The translations under genes and the position numbers were made by a program. Under the pieces are notes generated by a model. It made no database searches and was not told the origin of the DNA. It saw nothing but the letters and a program-made list of their open reading frames with translations. From positions 357,554,001 through 357,618,000 of the forward strand of contig OZ024742.1 in assembly GCA_964016885.1 (NCBI GenBank): a DNA stretch of 64,000 bases, in the 5' to 3' direction. Source of the stretch: Eledone cirrhosa. Lineage: Eukaryota. Below are positions 22,073 through 58,091 of this stretch, one piece after another. Positions within the stretch are counted from its first letter, which is position 1. Every line of letters starts with the position of its first letter.

Positions 22073-24574
<2,502 letters not shown>

Positions 24575-24575
<1 letters not shown>

Positions 24576-24950
24576 GCACGCAGATGATCTAACGCTCATA
24601 GCTGAATCAATGACCGAGCTAGAGAAGAAATTCCAAACATGGAAGCACGGCCTAGAATCAAAAGCCCTTAAAATTAACCTAGCTAAGACTAAAGTTCTAG
24701 TTTGTAGGAAAGAAAATAAGGCGGCGGTTCCTTCCGGGAAATGGCCATGCTCAGTGTGTAGAAAAGGCGTAGGTAGAAACTCGATTTTATGTCCCAAATG
24801 CAAAGTATGGATGCAATAAAGATCTAGTGGGATCACACGTAAGCTAACTAAGAACATAGATTTTACATGCGGCCGGTGCTCTGATGCAATAAGTAGCAGC
24901 AAGTGCCCACAAAATACTAGCTCCTTCAATTGCGCAAAGGGATCTATAGT
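24575..24950 (+). pseudogene. Inverted second RTE RT segment
   Basis: HADDLTLIAES...KINLAKTKVL; a diverged inverted homologue of 23150-23505. Confidence 0.8.
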
Positions 24951-25250
24951 GTGTCCGCATGTATCTATGCGTTTCTCAATATATTGTTTATAACTCCCTC
25001 TGGTCGAGTAATCTTTGAAGTGTAGTGACTGCTGGAAAGCTGCCATTACTCATACTTCTCACCTCCTTAACCACCTCTTCTACGGCCTCGATATAAATAC
25101 CCCCTCCGCCTCCGTGGTATTTTTTTCAGGGTTATAAGGGGCTTAGCTTTGTTTCTTGACCGTTGTATCACGTGACTGACTCCCTCTCCGCCTTTTGGGA
25201 TTATATCTCACATCTTATAGACATGTTCTTGAAGCTAGTAAAATGAGGTC

Positions 25251-27744: not shown

Positions 27745-30700
27745 AAGAAAAAAAGATGAAATCATAAATGCAACTGGAGTCTTATTTTAAAATAATATAT
27801 ATATTTATTCGGTTCCTTTACCGGTTTCGCAGTTCTTCTGCTTTTCAAAAGAAGAGTTGAGATGGAGGGTCTGTGGTTTTTCTCACATCTGGTTGGTCTC
27901 TGAATGTTACTTGTTTAATATGGAAAAAGTGGCTCGAAATTCCAGGTTTTTCGAGAAGTAATTTGATTGGTTGGTCAATAATTATAATACATTTCGCGCC
28001 AGTTCACGCTACAAAGTTCTTCAAACGAGGAGGGGTGTGTCTCAGGTTGTTTTTTCATATATGAGTGTTTAAATTTCTTTTTACTTAATAAAAGGGGGGG
28101 GGGGACTCACGAAGGTTTTTTTTTTAATAAACGTAATTTGATTGGTTATAAATGAAATTATGGCTGTCACGTGAACAAGTTTTCATTAAATTTTCGTGTC
28201 CTTATTTGGAAATCTATTCTGTAGCCTTTTTAGAGAATTTTATGAGAAGTAAAAGATAATGGTCAAGAGAAATTGGATGGGAGAATTGGTCTGGTTCAGT
28301 GAATATGGTTAGTTCGCTGGGGTGTCAGAATTAAGATTTTCTATTGAATAAAGAAAGTAAAGATATGTATGTTTATTTGTGTGCTTGTGTGTGTATGTGT
28401 GTGTATTGGAAGATGATTCTATTAGTAGAAATTGGGGAAGGAGTTGTGTGTGTGTGTGTATGTGTGTTATGTGTGTGTGTGCGTGTGGGAGTATGTTAAG
28501 ATGGAGAGAATATATATATTTTGCGTGTGTGTATATATGTGTGTAGGAATGTGATTCTATTAGTAGAAATGGGGGAGGGAGTAGTGTGTGTATGGGTGTT
28601 ATGTGTGTGGGAGTATGGTTAGCATGTTAGGATGAAGAGAATATATATATATTGTATGTGTGTGTGTAGGAAAATGATTCCTTTAGTAGGAATATTTTTG
28701 AATGAACATATTTTCCTTATTCGTATTTGTTCTGTTGTATTGTCAGTGCAAACGTATGCTAAGGTTTATTTAGTTCGGGTTTTTATTTTCTAAAGTAGAA
28801 GGTGTTATGTGTGTGTGTATGTGTCTGTTTGGATGGTTAGCATGTTATGGTGTTGACATAATGTATATTAAACCATATTTAATGCTGGTCTATATTTTTG
28901 AATAAACATATTTTCCTTATTTATTCGTAATTGTTCTGTTGTATTGTTAGCGCAAAGGTAAAATGGGAAGACTTGGAATTTGGGTGTCTTATTACTTGCG
29001 CATATGTCTAGATGAGCGCTTAGTGGTATCTGTCTCGTGGTTGGATCTCGTAATTGTTGGCGATGAACTGTCATTCTGTTTCTGAGTGTGAGTTTAGTTT
29101 GTCCTATATAATCTTCATTGCATCCTTTACATTTAATGGCATAAAGTAGATTTTTTGATGAGCAAGTGAAGTGATTTTTTACAGTAAAATTTTGTCCTGA
29201 TTTAAATGTATACGTGTTGCCTTCAATGAGGTGAGTGCAGGTTCCACAATTAGAGCGACCACATTTTTTGACAGTTGGTTGTGGGTTTGTGGTAGGTAAT
29301 TTGGCATTGGTGAGTAATGTTTTCAGTGATTTCGGTTGTCTTTTGCTTTTGATTATTTTGTGTGTTTCAAGGGCTTTTTTCATTCATGGGTTTTGTTTTA
29401 GTAGTGTGATGTTCTTGTGAATAATGTTGTAAACTTCCGCATTTCTTGGGTTGTGTGTTGAGATATATGATAGAATATTGGACGTACCTTGAATTTATTT
29501 CTGTTTTCGTAATTCATCAATGCCTATTGCTTTAGCCCTTTCTATTCCATTATTTATTAGTAATGGTGGGTACTCTCTTTTGAGTAGAATTCCTTTAATT
29601 CTTGAAGTCTTTTATTTCGCGTTTCATAATTGGAGAACATTGTGCAAATTCTTCTTGCTAGGTTAAAAGGAATGTTCGTCTTCCTGTGCATTGGATGGTT
29701 GGAGGTGCATAGCAGGTATTGTTTAAAATCTGTTGGTTTGTAGTGTATGTCAGTTTCAATATTTGTGTATTTTTTAAGATTAAGATGTCCAGAAATGGGA
29801 ATTGATCTTGGCTGTATTCCATTGTGAATTGGATGTGGTTATTGATGCCGTTTATTAAGTTTTTGAAATCCTTCAGTTGGTCGAGTGTGTGGGACCAAAG
29901 AATGAGACAATCATCCAAGTAGCGTTTCCAATTCTATGATAAATATTTGTGGAAGTTCAATTCGTATTTTGATTTGGACTGTTCATATATCTGGACTTCT
30001 AAGTATGCCATGACTAAGTTGGCATACGTTGGAGCGGCTTTTGTACCCATCTCAGTCCCCGATATTTGCTTGTAAGTACTGCTATCGAAATCAAAAAAGT
30101 TGTTCTGAAGATGAATTTTAATCCCTCGGTGATGAAGCTTTTTTCTATTCTGCCAGGTATCTCATTGGGATGTTTCTCTAGCCAGAATCCTATTGCTTCT
30201 AGTCCGTATTGGTGTGGGACCGTTGTGTAGAGATTCACTACACCGAAAGACACAATAATAGTGTCGTTGTTGACATGTTTGGGGAGGTGGTTTAAGAGGT
30301 CCAGATCGTCTCTTACAAGGCTTGGTATGTGTTTGAGAATTGGTTTTAATAGTATGTCTATAAAGTTGCTCAGTCTGTGTGTTTCATATTTGTGGGCCCA
30401 CTACAATTGGTCTTCATTTAAGGTCTGTGGGGTATTGTGTGTTCACGCAGGCTGAGGTGGATTGTTTACAGACATCGTTAATTATTTTATACTTGTGGAT
30501 CTTCGGAAGTCCGTAAAGGTTGCTGGTTTTGTATTCAAAATGTGTTAAATAATCGCGTTCCTTTTAAGTTTGGTCTTCCGGGTATCGATAAATCAGTGTG
30601 TTTAATCTGATCATTGTTTTTGATTGCTGGTAGTTTTTTACTCTTTCATAGTAATTATTATTTTGTAAGAGAGACAATATAGAACTTTTATATTTTACAG

Positions 30701-31632
30701 CCTGCATAATGACAACAGTTCTTCCTTTGTCCGCTTCTTTAATTATAATGTCCGTATTGTTTTTTAGTTCATGGATAATCTCCCATTCCCTTCGACTCGT
30801 GTTGAGTTTGGGTTTAGGTTGCGGTAGTTCATGGTATCGGAAAGTAGCTATGTGGTCACAGAATTTTTCCAGAGCTCTGTTTCTACCTTTTGTTGGGTTG
30901 CTTTTATTCCGTACAATTGATTCGTCGTTATTCTCCTTGTCAAAGAATTCCTCTGAGAGACGTAATTTTCTACAGAAGTGTGAGATATCGTCATTTATCT
31001 CATTGGGGTTAGAGTATTGTGGTGTTAGTGTGAATTTCAGTCCTTTGGAGAGAATATTTACTTTTGGGGCTGAGAGGTTTTTATTTGAAAGGTTGATTAA
31101 TTCGGTTTTTCAAAATCGTTTTATGCCACCGGGTGTCGTGGGTCCTGTAGCCTTGGTCTAAAAAATGATTTTTCGGGAATGTTTTTTCAATGGTATTATT
31201 ATATCTAATGGTATTTCCCCTGTTGTTGTGTGGTCTTGTATAGATGTTTCGGACGTATTGAGGTTCAGTTTGTTGATAGTCCGGGTTGTAGATTTTGTTC
31301 CTTTGTGTGGGTTGGAAATTTATTATAATTAGTGACCAACCAATCAAATTACTTCTCGAAAAGCCTGGCATTTCGAGCCACTTTCTCCATATAAAACAAG
31401 TAACAATTCAGAGACCAACCAGATGTCAGAAAAACCACAGACCCTCTATCTCAACTCTACTTTTGAAAAGCAGAAGAGCTGCGAAACCGGTAAAGGAACC
31501 AAATAAATATATATATATTTTTTAAAATAAGACTCCAGTTGCATTTTCGATTTCATCTTTTTTTCTTTATACTTTCACTCGTGTAGGACACCTCGGTTAT
31601 GTTTCATTTTGTTAAAAAATCCCTCACTTTCT
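27745..31632 (-). mobile_element. Decayed Penelope-like element (RT + Zn-linker + GIY-YIG) with an inverted pseudo-LTR
   Basis: LSKGLKFT, RYLDDCL, FPFLDI, CGRSNCGTC, LLYAIKC..YIGQT (28868-29383). 27745-27987 is inverted at 31320-31570. Confidence 0.93.
27814..27853 (-). ncRNA. Minimal type I hammerhead (U3-A8) in a PLE pLTR; second copy at 31458-31497 (+)
   Basis: TTCTT-TTGAAAA-GCAG aagaa CTGC-GAAA-CCGG-TA-AAGGA, with a palindromic CCGG stem III. Confidence 0.8.
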
Positions 31633-32286: not shown

Positions 32287-32312
32287 TTAGGTATATATAT
32301 ATATGTATATAT

Positions 32313-32421
<109 letters not shown>

Positions 32422-32443
32422 TATATAAATATATATATATATG

Positions 32444-32535
<92 letters not shown>

Positions 32536-32548
32536 TACATATATATAT

Positions 32549-33853
32549 ATCTTCATCAGGCAGTAACGGTCCACAGAATCAAAGGCCTTCCTAAAGTCAA
32601 TGAAAACCATGACCGCAGGAAGGCACTTTGCTCTAGCTCCCTCTAATATCCTCCTCAGCATCAGGATGTGACTGGTGGTTGATCTACCCTCTCTGAAAAC
32701 GTTCTGGTTGTCCCTGAGCTTCTTCTCCATCTCAGGCTGGATCCTGTTAAGAATCATCCTGTTGAGGGTCTCTGCCACAAGTGACGTCAGTGAGATCCCC
32801 CGGTAGTTGTTGGTGTCAGAGAGATCTCCCTTCTTTGGCACTGGGACGATGTTACTGATCCTCCACTGATTCGGGGCAACTCCTTTCTCTAGTGCCCCGT
32901 TACAGAACCCCAGGATGATATCATCAAAATCACACCTCTTCATCACCTCTGATGCCACTCCATCTTCTCCATGAGCCTTGCCCTCCTTGATCTTCTTCTT
33001 GGCTCTCTGAAGCTCCTCTCTGGTGAAGGGCTCTGTCTCAACATCCAGTTCCTCAAACAGCCGCCTGATCTCCCCAGTGCTCTGGGCTGTGGAGGGTGGC
33101 TCTCCTAGTAGGGTCATAAAATGGTCTAACCATTTCCTCTTCCTATCCTCGGGCCCCGTTCCCTGGATCTGACTCGAACACCTTTTCTTCCTCCCTGTGA
33201 TCTCGTTGATGATCATCCAGCTCTCCTTACATCCAGATCTGTCAACTGCTCTCTCCACACTTCTGATCTTCTCTATCAGTGCCTCCTCTCTGACCTCAGT
33301 GTAAGCGGTACAGAGCTCTTCCCTCATCACCTCCACAGTCTCCATCTTCTCCTCCGTAGGATCAGCATAGAATTGGTCCCTGGCAGCTTTCAGGTGTTCT
33401 CTGGCTGCACACACTTTTGGGTTTGCAGAGCTGACGTGCTTCCCTTTGTTCTTTTTCCTCGGCACCAGGGTTTCACTTGCTTTCGCCACTGCATTGGTGA
33501 AGTGCCCGTACCACCTCGTCACACTCTCCTCAGTCCATCCAATCTCTCTCTCCTCTGACTCTCCACACAGAGCACTAAAGCTGTATGGGAGCATCCCAAA
33601 AGTCAGCTCAAAAGTGACACAGAGGAGACTGAGGTTGGCTGGACATGCTCACCGACATCCAGAGTTGACATTGCACTCAGTGCTCCTTTGGGAGCCCCTA
33701 CATGGACACACTAGAAGAGGAAGACCAAGGTTAACATATGTTGATGCCCTAAGGACAGACACTGGTCTGTTGGAGATGCAGGATATGGCAGCGATAATGA
33801 GGGACAGAGACCGCTGGAGAGAACTCGTCCATGGATCTCGGGAATTTTACCCG

Positions 33854-34210: not shown

Positions 34211-34250
34211 TATATATATATATTTATACATATATATATATATATATATA

Positions 34251-34992
34251 GAAAGATTTGAATGGATACAGTTTAGTTGAAAGGAATTTATTGACACGTG
34301 TTTCTGTAACAGTTACATAACCTAAAACAGCTATCTACAAACTTTTAGTTATGCAGACATTCAATATTTCAATGTTATTATTTACTGTCATTTCATCAGA
34401 ATAATATTACTGAGGACCTATTTAGTTTTTATAGAGAATATTAGGAGGGAGGGGTGAAGTTGTTAGAAGAATAGTTGAAGGAGTGGTTTTTCGATAGCAG
34501 TGAGAATTCTTGGTGGCAGTGAGTAATTAGATTCCCATCTGTTGTTTTGACATTTTTTATGGAATATATTATTGGTTATTTTTCTAAATCTATAGAAGGA
34601 TTAGAGATAGTAAAGATATGCGTGGTTGGTTTTGTGTTTGCACTTAACATTCAGACTTAAATTTTTCTTTCAAGTGTACGTATTCTTTCACCCACGCATT
34701 CACACAAATATATTTGCACACCTCTACAAAATACATATACTCATAATTCACATATTCATACTTACATACATATACACATGCATACACATATATATACACA
34801 CATGTATTCATGTACATACATACGCGCTCATGTGTATACATTTTCATACTCAACTTATCTTTATATATACACACGTATAGACACACACATATATACATAC
34901 ATACTCTAGTCCATGTGTACACACATACGCATACATACACATCCACATACACATACATACATACACATATATATATATATATATACATACAC

Positions 34993-35061
<69 letters not shown>

Positions 35062-35759
35062 CATATACCCACACACACACATATACACATACACACATAT
35101 ATATATATATATAAGCACTTTAATACATGAATACACTTACATCTAACTATAGGCATTCTTACTCAATAAAACACCAGAGCCAAAGAAATGTAACAACTTT
35201 AGCAGAAAAAGCTTGGACGCTCAGGGATAGCAATCAAAAGTTTACCCTAAAATGGGAGAAATTAGCTAAAACCCAAAGCTTTTCCAGGAGCCAAAATTTC
35301 TGCAAATTGTGTAATCTTGAGATTTATTACATAATCACACACAAGAAGAAACTGCTGAATAACAGAATTGAACGAACATTATTCTGCCGTCACAGAACTA
35401 AAACCCTTTTTTCCCACTACAAGCCGAATATTACATAAAAGAGGGACATCCCCCAACTATATAAACCTTAATCTAGTTAGAAAAATATAAAAACAATCTC
35501 TTCTCAACATATATTAATAACCTTAAATTACCATACTAATAATGAAAAGATATGCTGATGAGAATAGGTACAAATATGCGATAATGAATGTGTCTAAAAA
35601 CGTCCATAAGTATGTATATATATGTGAAAATGTATATAAATAAGTAAATATATATATATGTTTGATGTGTATAGTTAGATGTAAGTGTATTCATGTATTA
35701 AAGTGCTTATATATATATATATATGTGTGTATGTGTATATGTGTGTGTGTGGGTATATG

Positions 35760-35828
<69 letters not shown>

Positions 35829-36680
35829 GTGTATGTATATATATATATATATATGTGTATGTATGTATGTGTATGTGGATGTGTATGTATGCGTATGTGT
35901 GTACACATGGACTAGAGTATGTATGTATATATGTGTGTGTCTATACGTGTGTATATATAAAGATAAGTTGAGTATGAAAATGTATACACATGAGCGCGTA
36001 TGTATGTACATGAATACATGTGTGTATATATATGTGTATGCATGTGTATATGTATGTAAGTATGAATATGTGAATTATGAGTATATGTATTTTGTAGAGG
36101 TGTGCAAATATATTTGTGTGAATGCGTGGGTGAAAGAATACGTACACTTGAAAGAAAAATTTAAGTCTGAATGTTAAGTGCAAACACAAAACCAACCACG
36201 CATATCTTTACTATCTCTAATCCTTCTATAGATTTAGAAAAATAACCAATAATATATTCCATAAAAAATGTCAAAACAACAGATGGGAATCTAATTACTC
36301 ACTGCCACCAAGAATTCTCACTGCTATCGAAAAACCACTCCTTCAACTATTCTTCTAACAACTTCACCCCTCCCTCCTAATATTCTCTATAAAAACTAAA
36401 TAGGTCCTCAGTAATATTATTCTGATGAAATGACAGTAAATAATAACATTGAAATATTGAATGTCTGCATAACTAAAAGTTTGTAGATAGCTGTTTTAGG
36501 TTATGTAACTGTTACAGAAACACGTGTCAATAAATTCCTTTCAACTAAACTGTATCCATTCAAATCTTTCTATTTTTCTCCGGATTACTTTTGGAACTAC
36601 AACTGGAACCGTCGAGCAAACTCTACGTGAGCTGATAATCTACTGTGTGTAATATTTATATTACAACACAACGGAAAATA

Positions 36681-36684
<4 letters not shown>
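34251..36684 (+). mobile_element. 5'-truncated PLE: GIY-YIG C-terminal remnant, 3'UTR and a 900-bp inverted copy
   Basis: 35147-35438 encodes TLAEKAWTL..KWEKL..CKLCNLE..LLNNR..CRHR. 34251-35150 is the reverse complement of 35671-36570. Confidence 0.85.
36417..36533 (+). ncRNA. Type I hammerhead with canonical core and long stem II; mirror copy at 34288-34404 (-)
   Basis: TTATT-CTGATGA-aaTGACAGT...ACTGTTAca-GAAA-CACGTG-TC-AATAA. Confidence 0.82.
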
Positions 36685-36728
<44 letters not shown>

Positions 36729-36734
<6 letters not shown>

Positions 36735-37380
36735 ATACTTTGGGAGGGTCATGTTGCCAATAAGAAACACACGCACCAGTGTTTTCACTTCAATTTATTA
36801 TATATTTATAAATTTATAAATTTATAAATTTACAAATCTACAAACTTATAAATTTCTGGTTGGTTGGTTGGTTCCACAACCAGATAGTTGTTTATATATA
36901 TAGTCATAGTCCTTTCGTCAGACACTCTGTGACCTCTTCAGTGACTGGGGATTCCTTTCTTCGTTTCTGTGCCTTTCCTTTCTTCTATCCTACGCCATTT
37001 TGTTTCTGTGTGTGACACACACACAGTGTGTGTGACACACACAGAAACAAAATGGCGTAGGATAGAAGAAAGGAAAGGCACAGAAACGAAGAAAGGAATC
37101 CCCAGTCACTGAAGAGGTCACAGAGTGTCTGACGAAAGGACTATGACTATATATATAAACAACTATCTGGTTGTGGAACCAACCAACCAACCAGAAATTT
37201 ATAAGTTTGTAGATTTGTAAATTTATAAATTTATAAATTTATAAATATATAATAAATTGAAGTGAAAGCAACTGGTGCGTGTGTTTCTTATTGGCAACAT
37301 GACCCTCCCAAAGTATAACAATATCGGTTTCAACACACGATTTCAGATAAAGAATCTTGCTAAACAAATTCAGAAACGAA
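36729..37380 (+). mobile_element. PLE 3'-end fragment as a palindrome with arms of about 295 bp; HHR at 37104-37148 (+) and 36902-36946 (-)
   Basis: Inverted arms centred near 37025; AGTCA-CTGAAGA-G-GTCA..TGAC-GAAA-GGAC-TA-TGACT. The tail (atgaccctccc.aagtataacaata..acacacgatttca) is shared with 54605-54680. Confidence 0.85.
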
Positions 37381-38250: not shown

Positions 38251-38378
38251 TATGATAAACACAAAAGTGTTTATTTCATTTAGTTTATTTCATTTAGTTT
38301 ATTTCATTCTAGCTAACTTCGTATTTTACAATACAAACACTTTTGTGTTTATCATATATTAATTTATATTAACTTGTA

Positions 38379-38416
<38 letters not shown>

Positions 38417-38432
38417 GGTATATATATATATA

Positions 38433-38511
<79 letters not shown>

Positions 38512-38515
<4 letters not shown>

Positions 38516-40566
38516 ATATATCTACTAACATAAGCGCACAGATGTACGCTAATGCCAGCAAATACACAGGTTATGTCATAGTACCTAGGTGGTTCAATGC
38601 AGGAGGATGCAGAACAATAATATAAAAGACGTAAAATAAGAAAAATTTAAAAAAAAATTAAAAAAAATTAACTTACTTAAATTTTCACTCCAACTAATTA
38701 GTTTCTGCAATGGGATAAAGACAGTTACGTAATGAACTGTTGAGAATTTCATTGCGTCATCAGGGAGATCTATTCTCAGCCAAGTCTCCAGGCAATGCGC
38801 GGACACTGGGTACTCATATAAAAATAATAATAATTCGGTAAATGGAACAGCTATCGAGGACTGGATTCCAGGCACCGAAAATTCTCACTGCCACTGGTCA
38901 AATGGCCGATTCTAAAGAATCAATCACGTGACACAGAGGCTAGTCAGTAGGAATGGGATGGTAAGATGACAGACGCCTACTAACACCCCCAGACAAATTT
39001 AGAAGTGGTTTGGGCAGGTTTGCTCGACAAATCATTGATTTGGAGGTAAATATAGATAATTTAATATATCTACAAACATAAGCGCACAGATGTACGCTAA
39101 TGCCACTTCTAAATTTTTTGGGGGGTGTTAGTAGGCGTCTGTCATCTTACCATCCCATTCCTACTGACTAGCCTCTGTGTCACGTGATTGATTCTTTAGA
39201 ATCGGCCATTTGACCAGTGGCAGTGAGAATTTTCGGTGCCTGGAATCCAGTCCTCGATAGCTGTTCCATTTACCGAATTATTATTATTTTTATATGAGTC
39301 CCCAGTGTCCGCGCATTGCCTGGAGACTTGGCTGAGAATAGATCTCCCTGATGACGCAATGAAATTCTCAACAGTTCATTACGTAACTGTCTTTATCCCA
39401 TTGCAGAAACTAATTAGTTGGAGTGAAAATTTAAGTAAGTTAATTTTTTTTTAATTTTTTTAAACATTTTTCTTATTTTACGTCTTTTATATTATTGTTC
39501 TGCATCCTCCTGCATTGAACCACCTAGGTACTATGACATAACCTGTGTATTTGCTGGCATTAGCGTACATCTGTGCGCTTATGTTAGTAGATATATTAAA
39601 TTATCTATATTTATCTCCAAATCACTGATTTGTCGAGCAAACCTGCCAAAACCACTTATAAATTTTTTTGGGTGTGTTAGTAGGCATCTGTCATCTTACC
39701 ATCCCATTCCTACTGACTAGCCTCTGTGTCACGTGATTGATTCTTTAGAATCGGCCATTTGACCAGTGGCAGTGAGAATTTTCGGTGCCTGGAATCCAGT
39801 CCTCGATAGCTGTTCCATTTACCGAATTATTATTATTTTTATATGTGTCCCCAGTGTCCGCGCATTGCCTGGAGACTTGGCTGAGAATAGATCTCCCCGA
39901 TGACGCAATGAAATTCTCAACAGTTCATTACGTAACTGTCTTTATCCCATTGCAGAAACTAATTAGTTGGAGTGAAAATTTAAGTAAGTTAATTTTTTTT
40001 TTTTTTTTTTTTTTTTCTTATTTTACGTCTTTTAGATTATTGTTCTGCATCCTCCTGCATTGAACCACCTAGGTACTATGACATAACCTGTGTATTTGCT
40101 GGCATTAGCGTACATCTGTGCGCTTATGTTAGTAGATATATTAAATTATCTATATTTATCTCCAAATCACAGATTTGTCGAGCAAACCTGCCAAAACCAC
40201 TTCTAAATTTTTTTGGGTGTGTTAGTAGGCATCTGTCATCTTACCATCCCATTCCTACTGACTAGCCTCTGTGTCACGTGATTGATTCTTTAGAATCGGC
40301 TATTTGACCAGTGGCAGTGAGAATTTTCGGTGCCTGGAATCCAGTCCTCGATAGCTGTTCCATTTACCGAATTATTATTATTTTTATATGAGTCCCCAGT
40401 GTCCGCGCATTGCCTGGAGACTTGGCTGAGAATGGATCTCCCTGATGACGCAATGAAATTCTCAACAGTTCATTACGTAACTGTCTTTATCCCATTGCAG
40501 AAACTAATTAGTTGGAGTGAAAATTTAAGTAAATTTTTTTTTTTAATTTTCTTATTTTACGTCTTT

Positions 40567-40567
<1 letters not shown>
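38512..40567. mobile_element. Retrozyme-like array: about 1.1 units (-) joined to about 2.7 tandem units (+) of 545-549 bp
   Basis: Unit offsets of 549 and 545 (39236/39785/40330); 38512-39104 is in the reverse orientation. One HHR per unit. Confidence 0.9.
39344..39423 (+). ncRNA. Type I hammerhead with canonical core, extended stem II, palindromic stem III (copies about 38688-38767 -, 39893-39972 with U4C, 40438-40517)
   Basis: CTCC-CTGATGA-C-GCAATG...CATTGC-A-GAAA-CTAATTAG-TT-GGAG. Confidence 0.85.
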
Positions 40568-40599
<32 letters not shown>

Positions 40600-40604
<5 letters not shown>

Positions 40605-40930
40605 AACACACACAGAGAAACAATATGGCGTAGGACAGAACAAAGGACACGCACAAAAACAAAGAAAAGAATTCCAGTCAGTGAAGAGGTCACAGAAAGT
40701 GTGAGGAAAGAACTTTGACAATATATAAACAACCATCTGGTTGTGGAACCAACCAACCAACCGGAAATTTATAAATTCCTAAATGTATAAATTTATTATA
40801 ATAAATTGAAGTGAAACAACTGGTGCTTGTGTTTCTTATTGGCAACATGACCCTCCCAAATATAACAATATCGGTTTCAACACACGTTTTCAAATAAAGA
40901 ATCTTGCTAAAAAATTCAGAAACGAAATAC
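40600..40930 (+). mobile_element. Diverged copy of the 37030-37380 PLE 3' end with a mutated HHR
   Basis: agtca-GTGAAGA-ggtcac..GAAA-GAAC-TT-TGAC and the shared tail. Confidence 0.8.
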
Positions 40931-41034
40931 ATATATATACTTCTTACGTTAATTATTTTCCAATTTGACGTTATAGTCACTTATACATTATGAAATACTG
41001 TTGGCTTCACGCTCACAATAATTTCTATACTTTC

Positions 41035-41125
<91 letters not shown>

Positions 41126-41282
41126 AAAGAATAGAGGTGTAACACATAAGTTATTATATATTGGTAAACGGAATAGAAAATGCTGACAAATTGTTCACAG
41201 TTGAAAAATGGTTTAATTAGAAATACAATAGTATTAGTGATTGTATGGGTTAGTATTCAGTTGTGGTTTTAAGTTTTTAAGT

Positions 41283-41319
41283 TTTTACCGGTTGCGCATT
41301 TCTAAATGCTTTTCAAAAA
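41283..41319 (-). ncRNA. Minimal hammerhead-like motif with U3-A8 and GCAA in place of GAAA (copies 46145-46181, about 57626-57662)
   Basis: TTT-TTGAAAA-GCATT taga AATGC-GCAA-CCGG-TA-AAA; same layout as 27814-27853. Confidence 0.65.
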
Positions 41320-41672
41320 TAATTTTGAGATAGAGTGTCCGTGCTGTTTGCTCTGATCTGATTAGTTTTGGGAATTCTACCTGTTTTTATGTTAAAAAAG
41401 TGGCTCCAGCGTTATTTTTGTGTTGCAAAAATGCTTGTGGTCAAAACAATTTTGATTGGTCGGTAGAGGTCATGTGAATGTAAAAAGTTGATTTTGCGCC
41501 AAGACTGTTTTTATGTTAAAAAAGTGGCTCCAGCAAAAATTCTTGGTCAAAACAATTTTGATTGGTCGGTAGAGGTCATGTGGATAAAAAATTGGTTTTG
41601 CGCCAAGATTGAGAAATGACTCTTTCACAACAAATATGTGTGTGTGTGTATGTGTGTGTGTGTGTGTGTGTC

Positions 41673-41725
<53 letters not shown>

Positions 41726-41807
41726 AGTAGTAGTAGTAAGGTGTTCGATGCTGCGACAATGGCCAGCAGCGATGTGTGTCAAATGGCTATTAAGATAAGT
41801 GTGTGTT

Positions 41808-41854
<47 letters not shown>

Positions 41855-42359
41855 CAGAGTAATTCGATGGTCAGTAACAATGTGTCTGAAAGCAATGGGG
41901 GGTATTTTAGCATGTCAAAAGATATTTTCAGCTTTTGTCTTATACGGAGAAGTGCGTGTGTGTGTGTGTGTATAAGTCTCTTTGTATGTTGATGTACGCG
42001 TGTGTATGTGTTTGTGTATATATGTGTGTGGGGGGGGGGGGCAGTATTATTTTCCCCCTGGTAAAATGGTGTACATTATTCGATTTTTTCAGTAAAATCG
42101 GTTCTCTTAATAGAACATCAAAAATCTTAACAATAAAAGGTGTGAAATGATATTCACTATATATATATACACATACATATATTCACTACATATATATATA
42201 TATATATATATACATATATACATACATATATATGCACATATATTTCTTTGTATTGCACCATAGAGCATGTGTGTTTACGTGTGTCATTGTGTTTATATGT
42301 GGGTAGAGATGTGTGCTGATGTAGGTATGTATGTTGACGTGTGTATGTTGTGGGTTGTC

Positions 42360-44684
42360 TTAGGGAGAAGTGTTTAGACGGGGTCCGTATTTGTTAATGA
42401 AGTAAGATTCCTTGCTGAAGCGCTGGGTGTGGGTGGCATTATCTTTAAATTTGTAGAGGGGAAAGATTCTGAAGTTGGGATGATTTGGGGCGGCACAGGT
42501 ATCAATGTGTTCACTCAGTGGTATTTTCCTGTATTCCCGTATTTTAATTTGGGATCTATGGACAGTCATGCGTTGGCGGGGGCTGTTTTTGGTCTGGCCT
42601 ATGTATTGTTCTCGACAACCTGAACAAGTTAATACATATTTTAGATTTTCCGATGCACATGTGAAATTGTGTTTTACTATAAAACGTTGTCCATCTTTGA
42701 AATAGAATTCCGAACCCTCTATTAGGTTGATGCAAATGCCACAGTTGGGTCTATCGCATTTTTTTACTGTGGGTTTCGTTGTTGTGGTTGGCAGTACTTT
42801 GGCATGTGTTAAGATGTTTTTCATTGACTTGGATTGTCTTTTGCTCTTTATGATATCGTGTGTTCGTAGAATTTGGTTCATTCTATGGTCCTTTTTCAAT
42901 ACAGGGATGTTCTGGAGGATGGTGTCAAAGGCCTCATTGTTGAGGGGGTTGTGTGTGGAGATGTATGGAAGAGCTTTTAGTTTTGGTTGTTTTACTTTAG
43001 GGTGTCTAAGGTCCTTGGTACTGAGTTTTAGGGCACGTTGGATTCCATTGTCAATTAGTGATGCAGGGTAGTCCCTGCCTATGAGTGTGTCCTTTAGTTC
43101 TTGTAGCCGTAAGTAGCAGATGTTTTTATTGGAGACTATAGTACAGATTCTCTTGGCTAAGTTGTAGGGAATATTAATTTTAACGTGTCTAGGGTGGCAA
43201 GAGTTGAAGGGGAGATATTGCTTGGGGTCTGTGGGCTTGTAGTATATGTCTGTTTCTATTTTTTTGTTATGGATCTTAATGAGGATGTCGAGGAAGGGGA
43301 GTTGTTGATGGATGTATTCCATCGTGAAGTTAATATTTGTGTTGAGCCCATTTATAAGGGTGTGAAATTCTTTAAGTTTTTCGATGTTTTCGTGCCAAAG
43401 GATGAAGCAGTCATCTAGATATCGCTTCCAGTTCCTTTCAATGTGTAAGTGGAGGGTGTTTCCAAATTTGTTTAGGACTTTAGTGTAGAGGGTGATTTCC
43501 AGGTATCCCATGACTAGGTTGGCATAAGTAGGGGCTGTTTTCGTTCCCATAGCGGTCCCAGATTTCTGCCTGTAGGGTTTGTTATTGAAAACGAAGTAAT
43601 TGTTCTCCAAGATAAATTTGAGTCCCTCTATCACGAATTCTTTTTTGATGCGTTGTGGGAGTTCATTGTGGAAATTATCCAGCCAGAATTGGATAGCTTC
43701 TATTCCTAGGTTGTGGGGGATGTTGGAGTATAGGTTGACTACATCGAACGTCACTAGTAGGGTTTGTTCAGAAAGTGACATATTAGGGAGGTGATTGAGC
43801 ATATCTAGGTCGTCCCTTATATAGCTTTTGATGTGCTTGAGGAAGGGTTTGAGAAGGGTATCAATGAAGTTGCTAAGACGGTGCGTTTCGCAAGCGGGGC
43901 CTGCTATTATAGGTCTTAATTTGAGATCATTGGGTGAGGGGACATTGATGACTATGCCTGTGGCTTCCTTGCATGCCTTACTTATTGATTCGCTTTTATG
44001 TACTTTAGGGATACCGTAGAAAAGGCTGGATTTACTTGTGAAGTCTGTGATGAAGCTGAATTCCTTGTTAGTGAGTCCTTCTTTGTATTGGTTGATTAGA
44101 GTTTTTAGGTTTCTCATAATTTTCTGTTGATTGTAGTGTTCAGCCTTTTCGTAGTATGTTTCGTTTTCCAAAGTGGAGAGCGCTAAGTTGATATAGAATT
44201 CTGTCTCCATTAGGACTACTGTACTCCCTTTATCAGCCTCTTTAATTGTAATGGTTCTGTCGGTTTTTAATCTATTTAATTCTTCCCCTTCTTTCTTGTT
44301 GAGGTTTGGCTTGTGTTTTTGTCTGTGCAAGTGTTGGTAAGGGAAGTTTGTGATGTGTTCACAGAATTCGTCCAGGATTTTATTTCTACCTTTTGAAGGG
44401 GTGTAATTGCTTCTATTTCTGGCTAATGATTCATCCTCATTGTACTGGTCGAATAGTTGTTCACTAAGTCGTAACTTTCTACAGAAGTCTGTGATGTCTT
44501 CCTTCATTTCATAGTAGTTAGGACGTAGTGGGGTCGGTGTGAATTTAAGACCTTTGGAGAGTAAGTTGATAAGGTTGGGTGTTGGTTCTGCACTAGTAAG
44601 ATTGATAATTTTTATTACTATCGGTTTCTCCTCCCTGTCTTGTGTTATTTTGTTTGCCTGTATCTGTGTGCTGTGTCTAAAAAA
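42360..44684 (-). CDS. PLE ORF2: reverse transcriptase + Cys-rich linker + GIY-YIG endonuclease
   Basis: Uninterrupted 715 aa from the ATG at 44507. The frame stays open upstream through IINLTS..LLSKGLKFTPT to the slippery site. Motifs: IKEADKG, YGIPKVHK, LRPIIA, FDVVNLYSNI, GTAMG, RYLDD, LPFLD, CDRPNCGIC, LKYVLTC..YIGQT. Confidence 0.95.
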   Translation of the reverse strand, partial: FFRHSTQIQANKITQDREEKPIVIKIINLTSAEPTPNLINLLSKGLKFTPTPLRPNYYEMKEDITDFCRKLRLSEQLFDQYNEDESLARNRSNYTPSKGRNKILDEFCEHITNFPYQHLHRQKHKPNLNKKEGEELNRLKTDRTITIKEADKGSTVVLMETEFYINLALSTLENETYYEKAEHYNQQKIMRNLKTLINQYKEGLTNKEFSFITDFTSKSSLFYGIPKVHKSESISKACKEATGIVINVPSPNDLKLRPIIAGPACETHRLSNFIDTLLKPFLKHIKSYIRDDLDMLNHLPNMSLSEQTLLVTFDVVNLYSNIPHNLGIEAIQFWLDNFHNELPQRIKKEFVIEGLKFILENNYFVFNNKPYRQKSGTAMGTKTAPTYANLVMGYLEITLYTKVLNKFGNTLHLHIERNWKRYLDDCFILWHENIEKLKEFHTLINGLNTNINFTMEYIHQQLPFLDILIKIHNKKIETDIYYKPTDPKQYLPFNSCHPRHVKINIPYNLAKRICTIVSNKNICYLRLQELKDTLIGRDYPASLIDNGIQRALKLSTKDLRHPKVKQPKLKALPYISTHNPLNNEAFDTILQNIPVLKKDHRMNQILRTHDIIKSKRQSKSMKNILTHAKVLPTTTTKPTVKKCDRPNCGICINLIEGSEFYFKDGQRFIVKHNFTCASENLKYVLTCSGCREQYIGQTKNSPRQRMTVHRSQIKIREYRKIPLSEHIDTCAAPNHPNFRIFPLYKFKDNATHTQRFSKESYFINKYGPRLNTSP

Positions 44685-45955
44685 TGGTTGGGGTAGAGGG
44701 GTTGTCTGCTGATGTTAAGTGGTCTCCTGTGTTTGTTATATTCCTTGTTGTTGTAAAATGTGGTTCGGGTTGGTGGTTGTAGATTGAATGGGGTGTTCCT
44801 GTACTGCGAGTATGGGTGTGTGTTTCTATGTGCCATGTTGTATTGTGGTGTTATAAGTGGCCTACATTGTTCGTTGTATCGTGTGGTGTGGGTTTGTTGT
44901 GTATTGTGGAAGTGAGAGTTGAGAAAATGGTAATTACCTTGCTGTCCCCTTGAAGCGGGGAAGTTGTTGCATCTATCATGGCGGTGGTATCTTTTCCCTA
45001 TGTTTGACGATGAGGAATCCGCGTAGTAGTTGAGTGATTTGGTATGGTGTCTCCTTGAAGGGGGAAAGTTGTAAATGTCATTCTGGGGGAGATGATTTCT
45101 TGGGTTTTTGTTCCTTCTTATGGTAGCGAGGTTGGGAAGTTCATCTTCGGTGTGGTGCTTCCTTCTTCGTTTGTTTGAGGCTTGGGGGTTTGAGAAGTTG
45201 TTGTGCGGTTCAGTTATGGGTTTTCCTATTTTTATGAACGGGTTATTGGAGGTGTAATCCGTTTGAAAAGTCGATTCATAGTGTAGGAACCAAGCGGCAC
45301 TTTTTTCCCAGCGTTGAAGGGATTTCAGTTCTTCTCTGTTGCAGTCCCCTTTCCATAATTTGGAGATCTTCTCTACCTTGGGGCCTTCAGTTTTGTTGTT
45401 GATTTCCAGGAGGATCTCTTCATCGATGGTTTTGATTTTTTCCTCGTTTGTCTGGGACCTCAGTTTAAGAAGTTCAATTTCTGTCTTCATTTTTTCCAAT
45501 GCCATTCTTTCCCTAAGGTGTCTTTGAGGTCCGGGTTCATTTGGAATGGACTTTATTTGTAGTTTACGGGGGAGAGTTAGAGGGGTTGAGTTAAGCCATT
45601 TTTCATATATCTCTGCTTTGTTGTGATTTTGTATCATCTTCCAGAATGAGAACTTTCTGTCTCTGAGGGATTTGTTCCATTTTGGAATTGTTCGAATTTT
45701 CATTTTGTGTGAATCAATCTCACATGGTTCTTCGTTGGTTTTTCCTGGGTTGGTAGTAGTGAACATAGTTTGGATAGTATCGCAAAGGTTTTGGAGTTTG
45801 TCGCCGATTTCGGAGGGTTTGTATCCGGTGGCGGTTTCCTTATTTGTGGAGTCAAGTTTGTCGACCAGCAAAGATAGGTTGGTGTTGATTTTCTTGAGTT
45901 CCTGTAGGATCTCTTCATTTGAGTTGATGAGGGTTGTATCCGTTTTTGTTGGCAT
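44645..45955 (-). CDS. PLE ORF1, about 436 aa: coiled-coil N-half and a basic, N/H/R-rich, probably disordered C-half
   Basis: Uninterrupted ORF (ATG of MPTKTD at 45955) directly downstream of the pLTR. Heptad-like ILQELKKINTNLSLLVDKL and ALEKMKTEIELLKL. Confidence 0.8.
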   Translation of the reverse strand: MPTKTDTTLINSNEEILQELKKINTNLSLLVDKLDSTNKETATGYKPSEIGDKLQNLCDTIQTMFTTTNPGKTNEEPCEIDSHKMKIRTIPKWNKSLRDRKFSFWKMIQNHNKAEIYEKWLNSTPLTLPRKLQIKSIPNEPGPQRHLRERMALEKMKTEIELLKLRSQTNEEKIKTIDEEILLEINNKTEGPKVEKISKLWKGDCNREELKSLQRWEKSAAWFLHYESTFQTDYTSNNPFIKIGKPITEPHNNFSNPQASNKRRRKHHTEDELPNLATIRRNKNPRNHLPQNDIYNFPPSRRHHTKSLNYYADSSSSNIGKRYHRHDRCNNFPASRGQQGNYHFLNSHFHNTQQTHTTRYNEQCRPLITPQYNMAHRNTHPYSQYRNTPFNLQPPTRTTFYNNKEYNKHRRPLNISRQPLYPNHFLDTAHRYRQTK

Positions 45956-46498
45956 TTTCTGTATCTCGTGTGAGGATATGATAGTTAAAAGAATAGAGGT
46001 GTAACACACAAGTTATTATATATTGGTAAACGGAATAGAAAATGCTGACAAATTGTTCACAGTTGAAAAATGGTTTAATTAGGAATAAAATAGTATTAGT
46101 GATTGTATGGGTTAGTATTCAGTTGTGGTTTTAAGTTTTTAAGTTTTTACCGGTTGCGCATTTCTAAATGCTTTTCAAAAATAATTTTGAGATAGAGTGT
46201 CCGTGCTGTTTGCTCTGATCTGATTAGTTTTGGGAATTCTACCTGTTTTTATGTTAAAAAAGTGGCTCCAGCGTTATTTTTGTGTTGCAAAAATGCTTGT
46301 GGTCAAAACAATTTTGATTGGTCGGTAGAGGTCATGTGAATGTAAAAAGTTGATTTTGCGCCAAGACTGTTTTTATGTTAAAAAAGTGGCTCCAGCAAAA
46401 ATTCTTGGTCAAAACAATTTTGATTGGTCGGTAGAGGTCATGTGGATAAAACATTGGTTTTGCGCCAAGATTGAGAAATGACTCTTTCACAACAAATA

Positions 46499-46595
<97 letters not shown>

Positions 46596-46615
46596 TAGTA
46601 GTAGTAATGTGTTCG

Positions 46616-46872
<257 letters not shown>

Positions 46873-47374: not shown

Positions 47375-48605
47375 ACATGAGTAAAATTTCCTACCTGGGA
47401 GACTTAGCCATAAGCAATCAAGCACTATGCATGGCACTAACCGAAACGCACCTGACAAGCACTATAGCAGATGCAGAAATACATATACCGAAATATACTG
47501 TATTTCGTTCGGACAGGAATGAGAGAACTCATTGTGGGGTTGCTCTGTATATCCGTGAAGATGTCTCACCAATTGTACTGTTGACACATTCAAACTCAGT
47601 CTGTGGCACACTGATAATACATATGAAGCAACTACAAACAGTATTATGTGTCACATATAGGCCGCCCGATGCCCCCCAGTCATGAGGGTAAATTTGAGGA
47701 TAGCCTAAGTAGGATAGAAGAGGTCCTTGACAAACTGGAGCAGGGTCTCAACATCTTACTGCTGGGAGACTTCAACCTACCAAAGGTCAAATGGCCTGAG
47801 GGCCACCTCCTTCCTGGAATGACGTCAATAGAACAGAGACAGACGGAATCCCTGCTGGCCCTCACACACAGGCTGTTCATGGAGCAAGCAATACTCCTCC
47901 CAACAAGAGGCGAAAATGTCCTGGACCTCTGTTTTACAAACAACCAAGTGCTCATCCACAATGTAAAGGTGACACCAACAATTCTCTCGGATCATAACTT
48001 AGTAGAGCTAATGATATGTGGTCCAAGAGAACCAACAGAGACAAAACCACCAAGAAGCTCCGGGACGCTATCCAGCCTTAACTTCTACAAGGCTAACTGG
48101 AAAAAGATTAAGAGTGAAATCCGGAAGCAAACATGGAGTGAAAACACCGCCACACAACACACTAACACACAATTTCAACACTTCATGACAACGATATATG
48201 CAAAAAGTTTGTCCCGGAGAAAGAGGCAAACAGATACAAAAATCTTATTCCCAGAGATAGGAAAATCCTTATGAGACGTAGAACTAAACTCCCAAACCAG
48301 TTGAATAGTCAACAAAACAAAAACAAGAAGGAATCCTATTTGAAACGTGCACTACTTGACACCGAGATTGCACTCAAACTTTCACATGAGAATGAGAGGG
48401 CAAAGAAAGAGAACAGGGCCATAGAAAACATTAAAACAAACCCTAAGGCCTTCTTTAAATTTGCAAAAGAAACTGCTTCAGCACACTGCAAGATTGGGCC
48501 CCACTTCCACACGGACGGTTCATTAACCGAAAACCCCCAAGAGATATGTGAAATACTAAACGAACAGTACAAAAGTGTGTTCATATGTCCACTGAGGCAC
48601 ATGCA
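47375..48605 (+). pseudogene. CR1/L2-group LINE ORF2 5' part (APE endonuclease), frameshifted
   Basis: ALTETHL, RSDR..GVALYI, YRPP, LLGDFNLP, PTRGENVLDLCFTN, SDHNLV, IKTNPKAFFKF. Confidence 0.9.
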
Positions 48606-48611
48606 AATAAC

Positions 48612-49242
<631 letters not shown>

Positions 49243-51596: not shown

Positions 51597-51637
51597 TATT
51601 TAATTATGTCTCATATAACTTACTTACTTAAGTTTCA

Positions 51638-53086
51638 TTGTTAGCTATCGTCAGCAACGTATACCTTCCTGCCAGATTGTTGAAAGTCCGAAAGTATATA
51701 CTTACCTTATGCATATTAAATGCTGAGTAGCCCAATTTGCATATCGAGTGGGTTAATCGGCCGGGTGCACCGAAAACGATAAACTGAAAAAATGAAACGA
51801 AATTTCATTTCCCACGCTTAGTACGGCTGTTACTTAAAATAAGTATGTATACGTACATACATATATGTATACAGACGTACAGTAGTATGTATATATATAT
51901 ACATACATGCACACATATATATATGTACGTATGGATTCACCGAACATTTATTATAATGCTCGGTGTGTTTGTAAACAAACACCCCGTATTAAGCCGCAGT
52001 GTCTAGCAACCACCGTTGCTCGTTTGTTCAACACTGACAAAGGAACGCTGTACTAGTTTCAAGCTTGTTAGCTATCGTCAGCAACGTATATCTTCCTGCC
52101 AGATTGTTGAACGTCCGAAAGTATATACTTTCCTTATGCATATTAACGGCTGAGTAGCCCAATTTGCATATCGAGTGGGTTAATCGGCCGGGAGAACCGA
52201 AAACGATAAACGGAAAAAATGAAACGAAATTTCATTTCCCATTCTTAGTACGGCTGTTACTTAAATATAAGTATGTATACGTACATACATATATGTATAC
52301 AGATGTACAGTAGTATGTACGTACGTTCAACAATCTGGCAGGAAGGTATACGTTGCTGACGATAGCTCACAAGCTTGAAACTAATACAGCGTTCCTTTGT
52401 CAGTGTTGAACAAACGAGCAACGGAGGTTGCTAGACACTGCGGCTTAATACGGGATGTTTGTTTACAAACACACCGAGCATTATAATAAATGTTTGGTAA
52501 ATCCATACGTACATATATATATGTCTGCATGTATGTATATATATATATATACATACTACTGTACGTCTGTATACATATATGTATGTACGTATACATACTT
52601 ATATTTTACGTAATAGCCTTACTAAGTGTGGGAAATTAAATTTCGTTTCATTTGTTCCAATTATCGTTTGCAGTGCACCCGGCCGATTAACCCACTCGAT
52701 ATGCAAATTGGGCTACTCAGCCGTTAATATGCATAAGGAAAGTATATACTTTCGGACGTTCAACAATCTGGCAGGAAGGTATACGTTGCTGGCGATAGCT
52801 AACAAGCTTGAAACTAGTACAGCGTTCCTTTGTCAGTGTTAAACAAACGAGCAACGGTGGTTGCTAGACACAGCGGCTTAATACGGGATGTATGTTTACA
52901 AACACACCGAGCATTATCATAAATGTTTGGTGAATCCATACGTACATATATATATGTGTGCATGTATGTATATATATATACATACTACTGTACGTCTGTA
53001 TACATATATGTATGTACGTATACATACTTATATTTAAGTAACACCCGTACTAAGAGTGGGAAATGAAATTTCGTTTCATTTTTTTC

Positions 53087-53090
<4 letters not shown>
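51638..53090. mobile_element. Retrozyme-like array: about 1.6 units (-) then about 1.8 units (+), unit 427-433 bp
   Basis: Offsets of 427 (51641/52068) and 433 (52351/52784); orientation switches near 52322. HHR CGTTG-CTGACGA-T-AGCT aaca AGCT-T-GAAA-CTAG-TA-CAGCG is intact at 52046-52086 (-). Confidence 0.88.
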
Positions 53091-53147
<57 letters not shown>

Positions 53148-53303: not shown

Positions 53304-54688
53304 GCGGAAAAAATGAAACGAAATGTGCGACCCAACAGAAATGGAAACACACATCCAACACTTCATGAACCGCATGCAGTTCTGGCTACAACGAAAGAGA
53401 CAGAGTCAGAGTATACGAAGGGTCCACGGAGAAGTATAAGACCCTCATAGAACTGGACATGAAAGGAATTTTCCCATTATACAGGAGCAAATCATGGAAT
53501 AGATTAGATAGGGCTAGACATAACATAGGGAAAGCCACCTCATGGTACGACAACCAGAGATACCAGAGTGTCATGTTTGTAGACGCTACCCCCTGGAGGG
53601 AAATTAGCTAACCAGTGTAGAAAGGCCCTGAGAAAGACCCACTTAAAGAATAAGGTGGTAGAAAAGCCAGGAACCACCATAAAATCCCTGATCAGCAAAA
53701 TCTACCCTTTTAAGAAAACCCACTGTACTAATAGGAAATGTATCATATGTAAGGTAAACCCCCTGATAAACTGTAAAACTAGAAACGTAGTCTATAGCAT
53801 AAGATGTACAGAGGCTACTTGCAGAAACATGACAAAAACATACATAGGCGAGACAGCTCGTAGCATAGGGGAAAGGATAGACCAATACTGGCGGGAACTA
53901 AAAGGATGAAAAAACGGTTCAGTAGTATACGAACATGCCAGACAACAACACAACGGTAACATAGACAACATAGAAATTAGAATAATATCTAAATATAGAA
54001 ATGACCCCGCAGATAGGCAAATTAGAGAGGCCAGTGAAATAGAACTTAGAAGGCCAAGGCTAAACAGAAAGAATGAATGGAATAACAACAACACCCAAAC
54101 AAACAACACTGACCTAAGAGACGTATAAATAAATAACTAGTTAAATAAATAAATAAATACATACACAAGCACAATAACAACAAACACATATAAACACACA
54201 ATAGTAAAGATAGAATACATTAACCAATACACAGTCACCCTATCACGAACACACATCAAACAAAACGCTATACACACGCACACGCATGCACAAAGAAAAC
54301 AAAATAAACAAATAAATAAATATATAAACAGACTAAATAAAGATGGCGAAGAAAATACAATGCAACGAGAGGAAACAATAGCACCACTGACGATGTTGCA
54401 GATGTGCAACGAAAGAACTTTGATAAACTATATATATGTGTTTATGTCTATATTGTATCTGTATTATTTTTGACCGTTGGTCAGTCAATGGCAACATTGA
54501 GGACCGAATAAATTAGATTACCGATATAAAAGACACAGAAGCGAAAAGCGAAAACCAACCAAACAGTGAGTGTGTTCTGTTATTAATTCTGGCAATATTA
54601 CACAAATATGACTCTCCCCAAGTATAACAATATTTGTTTCGACACACGATTTCATATCAAAAACCTCGCAAAACTAATTCATCGCCGC
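53304..54688 (+). mobile_element. 5'-truncated decayed PLE (RT thumb + GIY-YIG, 3'UTR with degenerate HHR at about 54383-54424)
   Basis: CKTRNVVYSIRC...TYIGETARSIGER, EHARQQH. CTGACGA-T-GTTGCA gatg TGCAAC-GAAA-GAAC-TT. Confidence 0.88.

Positions 54689-54710: not shown

Positions 54711-55618
<908 letters not shown>

Positions 55619-55845: not shown

Positions 55846-55920
<75 letters not shown>

Positions 55921-55924
<4 letters not shown>

Positions 55925-56935: not shown

Positions 56936-57009
<74 letters not shown>

Positions 57010-58020: not shown

Positions 58021-58091
<71 letters not shown>

Follow-up and report, generated by a model that had tools for sequence, protein, structure and literature searches.

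Tandem hammerhead units of Eledone cirrhosa as a probable non-LTR retrozyme with Penelope-like insertion ends

Introduction

Non-LTR retrozymes were defined by Cervera and de la Pena (2020, PMC7229834), with Penelope-like elements (PLEs) as candidate mobilisers. In the passages that treat them in that paper and in Li et al. (2026, 10.64898/2026.07.22.740005) they are, like the units analysed here, non-coding tandem repeats of few laps with a type I hammerhead in each unit, without LTR and with co-occurring PLEs, and their GC content of under 45% agrees with the 36-40% found here. Units of 483-549 bp exceed the 150-450 bp given in PMC7229834 and fall within the 51-972 bp given by Li et al., who link retrozymes to the terminal repeats of PLEs (pLTRs) by phylogeny, favour growth of the tandems in place, and report in vitro cleavage for 1 of 9 Xenopus dimers. 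Head-to-head arms, a one-sided tail and (TA)n targeting, all present here, are not mentioned in these passages, and the words 'inverted' and 'microsatellite' do not occur in the main text of PMC7229834.

Compensated hammerheads with a long stem II and a palindromic stem III are typical of PLEs (Cervera and de la Pena, 2014, PMC4209133). In the sections of PMC4209133 and PMC6765202 cited here, PLE hammerheads share with the present motif a stem I of 4-5 bp, a long stem II, an unpaired base after A9 and a small palindromic stem III predicting dimers; their families are said to be 'full of covariations', with opposite-strand pairs 100-700 bp apart (PMC4209133; Lunse et al., 2017, via PMC6765202). 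A mismatch beside the hammerhead core is on record elsewhere (excerpt of PMC3088659), and File S2 of PMC8557442 contains a single C-A case, from a plant PLE. Retrozymes and PLEs are already known to have covarying hammerheads, a palindromic stem III, GUU sites and the C-A mismatch.

As hallmarks of PLE insertions, the relevant sections of PMC8557442 and PMC3846280 give a tandem plus an inverted copy, a one-sided tail of 30-40 nt and a bias for (TA)n. Hydra-clade PLEs (Craig et al., 2021, PMC8557442) resemble the element described here in their (TA)n targets and their palindromic or near-palindromic stem III, and differ in being autonomous, with a loop 2 of at most 10 nt, whereas the present element encodes nothing. 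Among the Hydra rows of File S2 of that paper, the site is GUU in 10 of 26 and a U-U stands beside the core in 14 of 26. In the Poseidon element of Anolis, as reported in the cited parts of Frangieh et al. (2024, PMC11167929), the tail is delimited in vitro by two reverse transcriptase (RT) starts at a stem-loop and an AT-rich target is cut on both strands, as would fit the present loci; the hammerhead is protein-assisted, and its cleavage is dispensable for insertion of the anole PLE.

The window analysed comprises 64,000 nucleotides of Eledone cirrhosa (assembly GCA_964016885.1, contig OZ024742.1, positions 357,554,001 to 357,618,000, forward strand), and all coordinates below refer to it. 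Its GC content is 25-46%, and (TA)n tracts and remnants of retrotransposons abound.

Organisation and distribution of the units

The features are listed in Table 1. The array was measured from cut to cut at 549 and 545 bp, in place of the 548 bp of the preliminary description, and its relative at 526 bp; the about 2.7 laps, the inverted lap and the single lap with U4C of that description were recovered. The 549-bp and 526-bp units are 79% identical over 512 aligned columns. In total, 11 of the 317 upstream positions vary among the laps, and laps 2 and 3 have two letters in common against lap 1 and the inverted arm. Both the 549-bp and the 526-bp locus consist of a partial tandem and an inverted, 5'-truncated copy placed head to head, and all loci lie within (TA)n or a related microsatellite. 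At the junction of the 526-bp locus, a 19-bp stutter combines sequence from the two arm ends, as repeated jumping between templates would produce.

Table 1. Positions of the element, its loci and neighbouring full-length or truncated PLEs in the window
Feature	Position	Strand	Remarks
(TA)n target, left of locus A	38377-38511		sequence
Inverted arm, 1.1 laps	38512-39105	-	hammerhead intact (core 38763, cut 38692); tail present, arm terminating at long end Y
Head-to-head junction	39103-39105		3-nt overlap CCA common to both arms
Tandem array, 2.7 laps of 549/545 bp	39103-40571	+	terminates at short end X, placed ambiguously within TATA at 40567-40571
Predicted distal stem I extension, lap 1	39326-39436	+	TGAGAAT 39333-39 complementary to ATTCTCA 39364-70
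Type I hammerhead, lap 1	39344-39423	+	stem I CTCC 39344-47 / GGAG 39420-23; core CTGATGA 39348-54, C39355, A39405, then GAAA, CTAATTAG; predicted cut after 39419 (GUU)
Stem II, lap 1	39356-39404	+	proximal GCAATG 39356-61 / CATTGC 39399-404; encloses 37-nt region with distal helix 39371-76/39385-90
Palindrome ACTAATTAGT, 10 nt	39409-39418	+	monomer: 3-bp stem III; dimer: 10-bp helix
Tail between X and Y, 114 nt	39493-39606	+	lap 1 coordinates
Bulged hairpin opening tail	39497-39520	+	kept in all three lineages; in the 483-bp family 2 of 8 pairs doubly changed, none broken
21-bp hairpin closing tail	39548-39593	+	12 letters differ from the 526-bp family, 1 pair broken; stable only on ribozyme strand
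Hammerhead, lap 2	39893-39972	+	core 39897, U4C at 39898; predicted cut after 39968
Hammerhead, lap 3	40438-40517	+	core 40442; predicted cut after 40513
Solo 549-bp family copy, 5'-truncated	21730-22009	-	core 21984; ends at Y; microsatellites on both sides
526-bp family locus in (TA)n	55916-56938		inverted arm terminating at X (55916), core 56043 (-); plus arm terminating at Y (56938), core 56692 (+); tail 115 nt
526-bp locus, stuttered junction	56289-56329		between inverted and plus arms
Third lineage, 483 bp, 1.8 laps	58814-59670	-	cores 59563 and 59080; G-C, not C-A; palindrome CCGATCGG; ends at Y
Hydra-type PLE, 5'-truncated	34248-36685		endonuclease end 35127-35435, hammerhead 36422, inverted arm, 110-112-nt tail
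Full-length PLE	41115-46617	-	784-aa RT + GIY-YIG frame, CX4CxxC linker (Neptune/Nematis type), 642-bp direct terminal repeats

The longest open reading frames of the 549-, 526- and 483-bp units have 31, 79 and 44 aa, at a GC content of 0.375, 0.359 and 0.395. Searches with 120 PLE-related proteins gave no match to the three units and no RT + GIY-YIG open reading frame in them; there are no tRNA genes within the window, and the units contain no tRNA-derived part.

One-lap matches were obtained in 1063 contigs of run X1 and in 8274 raw reads of another sample, the latter including head-to-tail joints of 532-549 bp. Matches under other organism codes (27 contigs in X5, 1 in X8) record presence in these runs only and do not imply a source genome. 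Pattern scans of metagenome and viral contigs returned two and one matches, rejected as short chance matches without the remainder of the unit, and a bacterial promoter scan gave a chance-level result, which is irrelevant here. Piles of read ends at 39276-79, 39363 and 39599-602, considered as element ends (Y), were rejected because they coincide with AATT, probably the restriction site used for a RAD library.

The hammerhead motif

Each lap carries one type I hammerhead with the core CUGAUGA ... GAAA CUAAUUAG UU. The 549- and 526-bp families together comprise seven copies at three loci and only two lineages; six of the seven have the core CUGANGA ... GAAA ... UH intact, with stems I-III and ends in stem I, and one has U4C, a change that lowers hammerhead activity and does not abolish it. 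The pair 10.1-11.1 beside the core is an unpaired C-A in these two families and G-C in the 483-bp family. Both C-A beside the core and a GUU site are suboptimal. From PLE hammerheads the motif differs in the 36-37 nt enclosed by stem II, which contain a second helix, and in an extra A before GAAA, which creates the C-A opposition. Rfam hammerhead models gave no match at the gathering score, and with E up to 10 on 38500-40600 four matches were obtained, none to a hammerhead family.

Complementarity between loops 1 and 2 amounts to 7, 5 and 5 bp in the three lineages, with chance probabilities of 0.02, 0.29 and 0.45; a loop 1-loop 2 pseudoknot between the two 7-nt segments named in Table 1 is thereby weakly suggested as a possibility.

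Compensatory changes in stem II

Proximal stem II reads GTAAGG / CCTTAC in the 526-bp family. As had been described, two pairs differ from those of the array on both sides (C-G to U-A and U-A to G-C) and none is broken, the second pair depending on gap placement: MAFFT opens a 1-nt gap in the 5' arm, so that this pair is lost, and a pairwise aligner keeps it. In simulations assuming independent substitution at rates taken from the whole unit, at least two compensated pairs with none broken arose with p = 0.002, or 0.008 given four changes. Among the 150 helices of at least 5 bp common to both lineages, two double changes occur in three, of which stem II is the only one free of G-U pairs. The core, the C-A opposition, the palindrome and the GUU site, reported earlier as invariant, match at 30 of 31 positions between lap 2 and the 526-bp relative, the exception being U4C, with 375 of 481 positions matching elsewhere.

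Further 5' arms following the same core read GTAAGG and then AATTCTC in 9 contigs, GTAATG in the consensus of 456 reads, and GAAAGG in one contig under another organism code; taken as 5' arms alone, without their 3' partners, they favour the ungapped register. None of the 40 listed among 134 read-variant places lies in the core or proximal stem II, from which no inference is drawn. The distal helix within stem II has two double changes and one broken pair between the 549- and 526-bp families, and among the 12 pairs of the proximal and distal helices combined, four are doubly changed (p = 3e-5 to 2e-4, with the distal and tail helices picked after looking and the distal register structure-guided and gap-dependent). 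The fold of the stem II region has z = -4.0 and -4.5 in the two lineages.

Since stem II offers a single two-lineage comparison with one pair gap-dependent, it is treated as support and not as formal covariation, and the preliminary term 'direct covariation evidence' overstates what two pairs, one of them alignment-dependent, can carry. Selection on the ribozyme fold is nevertheless the best reading of the letters, and is strengthened by the further helices and by the third lineage, the latter and the 21-bp tail hairpin giving stronger support than stem II itself.

Third lineage and dimer folding

On the 3' side of the cut, the 483-bp family aligns to the 549-bp family with a score of 80 (shuffles 28 +/- 5, maximum 48 of 300) and more weakly to the 526-bp family (score 46, shuffle maximum 51); on the 5' side of the ribozyme, the comparison with the 549-bp family gave no homology signal. 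Relative to the other families, three of four stem I pairs and two of five palindrome pairs are changed on both sides and none is broken, so that CTAATTAG has become CCGATCGG with self-pairing kept through four changes. This retention is the best sequence evidence for the predicted dimer cleavage.

Folding energies likewise agree with the earlier proposal that the palindromic stem III predicts a dimer: the dimer fold is 12 kcal/mol better than two monomer folds, and 8 kcal/mol better within a two-lap transcript. Against it, the full dimer lies 7 kcal/mol above the minimum of the two-lap transcript, and the catalytic monomer fold 2.5 kcal/mol above a misfold. Locus A has three consecutive hammerheads, the middle one with U4C, and the 483-bp locus two; by the geometry of the dimer, in one formed from laps 1 and 2 the site of lap 1 would be served by the U4C-bearing core of lap 2. 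Circular monomers compared with 12 shuffles each gave z = -5.8/-4.8, -4.2/-4.4 and -3.0/-2.0 for the two strands, values that were not used because they are not strand-specific.

Tail and insertion ends

In all three head-to-head loci examined (549 bp, 526 bp and the Hydra-type remnant), the arms end at different distances past the cut, 42-53 nt for one (short end, X) and 155-181 nt for the other (long end, Y), leaving a tail on one arm only, of 114, 115 and 110-112 nt, respectively. The solo 549-type copy and the 483-bp lineage also terminate at Y. At 114-115 nt, the tail is three times as long as the 30-40 nt published for PLEs; the Poseidon tail (PMC11167929, in the parts cited) lies within the start of the ORF, whereas the present one, of ~113 nt, is non-coding and contains two hairpins.

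For the 21-bp hairpin, likewise chosen post hoc, compensation has a p of about 0.001. It folds at -28.3 kcal/mol on the ribozyme strand versus -7.4 on the opposite strand, with 1 versus 5-6 non-pairs, and is retained through G-U-type changes on the ribozyme strand; energy and pairing thus indicate a strand-specific fold, as expected of RNA. Among six listed read variants within this hairpin, four keep or create a pair and two break one.

The tail has no sequence similarity to either PLE end tested (Hydra-type remnant, full-length PLE), and the unit scores 18 against the 3' sequence of the one Hydra-type remnant in the window (shuffles 23 +/- 4). The 549- and 526-bp loci have the (TA)n target in common with this remnant, and a tail of similar length. 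For published Hydra-clade elements, the distance from cut to consensus end was taken from Files S1 and S2 of PMC8557442 for 24 of the 26 rows, an antisense duplicate and a motif situated 5' being excluded: it is 30-70 nt in 12, 88-153 nt in 11 and 355 nt in one. Hydra consensus sequences may accordingly come in two forms, one terminating at a short end and the other at a long one. In the literature searched, which comprised neither subscription papers nor repeat databases nor the supplements of preprint 10.64898/2026.07.22.740005, no description was found of the 483-, 549- or 526-bp family or of a tail near 110 nt, such as the present one of ~113 nt, whose hairpins are conserved and whose length matches the tail of the Hydra-type Penelope remnant in the same window.

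Neighbouring elements

The remnant at 34248-36685 is assigned to the Hydra type by its motifs and its Atlas score: it has a 103-aa frame with CxxC ... E ... N ... CxH, as described for Hydra-clade endonucleases, which by eye resembles the Hydra rows in the supplement of PMC8557442, in the part seen, and scores 0.95 to a GIY-YIG-named Atlas cluster. No longer homologue of the fragment was found at E 0.001 among 20 candidates. Its inverted arms are perfect over 909 bp; its hammerhead has 88 nt between core and GAAA, two mismatches beside the core, the palindrome CACGTG and a GUC site.

In the full-length PLE, a 455-aa upstream frame overlaps the RT frame by ~70 nt, and a descriptor scan found no hammerhead. 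Relatives of it lie at 28868-31407 (-), with terminal-repeat pieces at 57469-58432 and 27817-27935. A fifth hammerhead family, in tandem and inverted laps at 51631-53092 and 54711-55560 (cores -52081 and +55125), has a U-U beside the core, the palindrome CTAG and a GUA site, with a damaged core or stem III in two of its copies, and is followed by a GIY-YIG PLE fragment at 53330-54120. Downstream of that fragment, a hammerhead-like core (CTGACGA, hairpin, GAAA) without matching stem I was noticed by eye at 54367-54393 (+). Beside the 483-bp locus, with (TA)n between, stands another PLE-type reverse transcriptase fragment (59746-60845, +), the first ~50 nt of which resemble the 52-kb family.

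Other repeats include fold-back, near-perfect palindromes of 350-600 bp (36727-37324, 40593-40939, 48615-48953), the 36.7-kb family of which also stands immediately right of locus A; 48-bp minisatellites at 582-3318 (57 copies, with long open frames on both strands) and 60798-61011 (4.5 copies); and LINE-type remnants with RT and endonuclease frames, judged from translations, at 23514-25049, 32287-33648 and 47627-48747.

Discussion

The element is best explained as a non-LTR retrozyme, that is, a non-coding, non-autonomous PLE (probability about 0.8), because every lap has a hammerhead and none codes for protein, the targets are (TA)n, the head-to-head arms have a short and a long end, and helices are conserved; this reading covers the three lineages only. 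The tandem locus would be transcribed on the ribozyme strand, and pairing of two adjacent hammerheads via the 10-nt palindrome would lead to cleavage after GUU, whether slow or helped by protein, releasing units of ~549 nt that may be ligated into circles. A PLE reverse transcriptase-endonuclease acting in trans would bind the structured tail, cut both strands of a (TA)n tract and have cDNA primed from two fixed RNA start points, X and Y, ~113 nt apart; joining of two such cDNAs head to head by microhomology would leave the tail on one arm. Multi-lap copies would call for an uncut multimer or a circle as template. Lineages whose RNA retains the folds would go on spreading, and the compensated pairs would record this selection, which most simply acts on propagation of the mobile element itself and not on a host function. 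Two published observations count against a mechanism based on cleavage, namely the eight Xenopus retrozyme dimers without cleavage in vitro and the dispensability of cleavage in the anole PLE.

As partner enzyme, a Hydra-type PLE is our leading candidate at somewhat less than even odds, a Neptune/Nematis-type one is a serious contender, and a different enzyme seems unlikely. For the template we lean slightly towards an uncut linear multimer or several molecules, a single circle being plausible and less favoured; the letters common to laps 2 and 3 are mild evidence against copying of a single circle. More tentatively, these retrozymes could be parasites of Hydra-clade PLEs, mobilised in trans and recognised by structure, not sequence. 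The ~113-nt tail would then be a putative platform for an RT-endonuclease dimer, with the bulged hairpin at the short RT start and the long hairpin at the long one, and long tails would characterise the whole Hydra clade and would have escaped notice, a proposal that we hold with the same reserve.

That the unit is instead the stranded terminal repeat (pLTR) of an autonomous PLE, truncated single insertions of which were multiplied in place by unequal crossing-over into a satellite-like array that never moved as a multimer, we consider improbable. The two letters by which laps 2 and 3 agree against lap 1 would fit such growth, the coding Hydra-type remnant leaves the same inverted, one-tailed structure, and a parent may sit outside the window. 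Past Y, however, the unit continues straight into its own 5' part in the 549-, 526- and 483-bp lineages, with no coding remnant, and the arrays start at truncation points and finish in a partial lap at exact RT-type ends, the inverted arm exceeding one lap.

It is very unlikely that the paired changes arose by chance or by DNA-level hairpin repair (template switching), with the hammerhead a relic that no longer cuts. The pairs named for stem II rest on two lineages and are all Watson-Crick, hence strand-neutral, and a relic would agree with the suboptimal C-A and GUU, with U4C in one of seven copies and with the failure of Rfam to recognise the motif; yet no unpaired letter of the core varies, against a divergence of 21-22% in the rest, the G-U-type changes of the tail hairpin fit the ribozyme strand only, and stems I, II and III are retained with other letters in the third lineage. 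Mismatches at the C-A position and GUU sites are, moreover, common among the PLE hammerheads in the rows consulted of File S2 of PMC8557442. Least credible is co-option of the array by the host, for instance as a source of regulatory circular RNA or as a transcript terminator, with conservation on that account: retrozyme circles are abundant in tissues of coral, mussel and axolotl according to PMC7229834 (in the part cited), but the copies here are young, dispersed in microsatellites, often truncated and in one case mutated in the core, which points to a spreading element and not to a conserved locus.

For a non-LTR retrozyme of PLE affinity, compensated pairs in a repeat-borne hammerhead are ordinary, since they have been published for the hammerheads of PLEs and of retrozymes. 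What the window adds is the insertion anatomy: non-coding multimers bearing the scars of PLE insertion, with a tail conserved in structure, occur here as three lineages alongside coding PLEs. If these retrozymes are indeed parasites of Hydra-clade PLEs, this would put a name to the enzyme that mobilises animal retrozymes and to their minimal cis element. In the cited parts of the published work, the link between retrozymes and PLEs is argued from co-occurrence and phylogeny; the insertion anatomy would make it testable in the existing in vitro PLE assay, and offers a candidate cis element for RNA-templated insertion.
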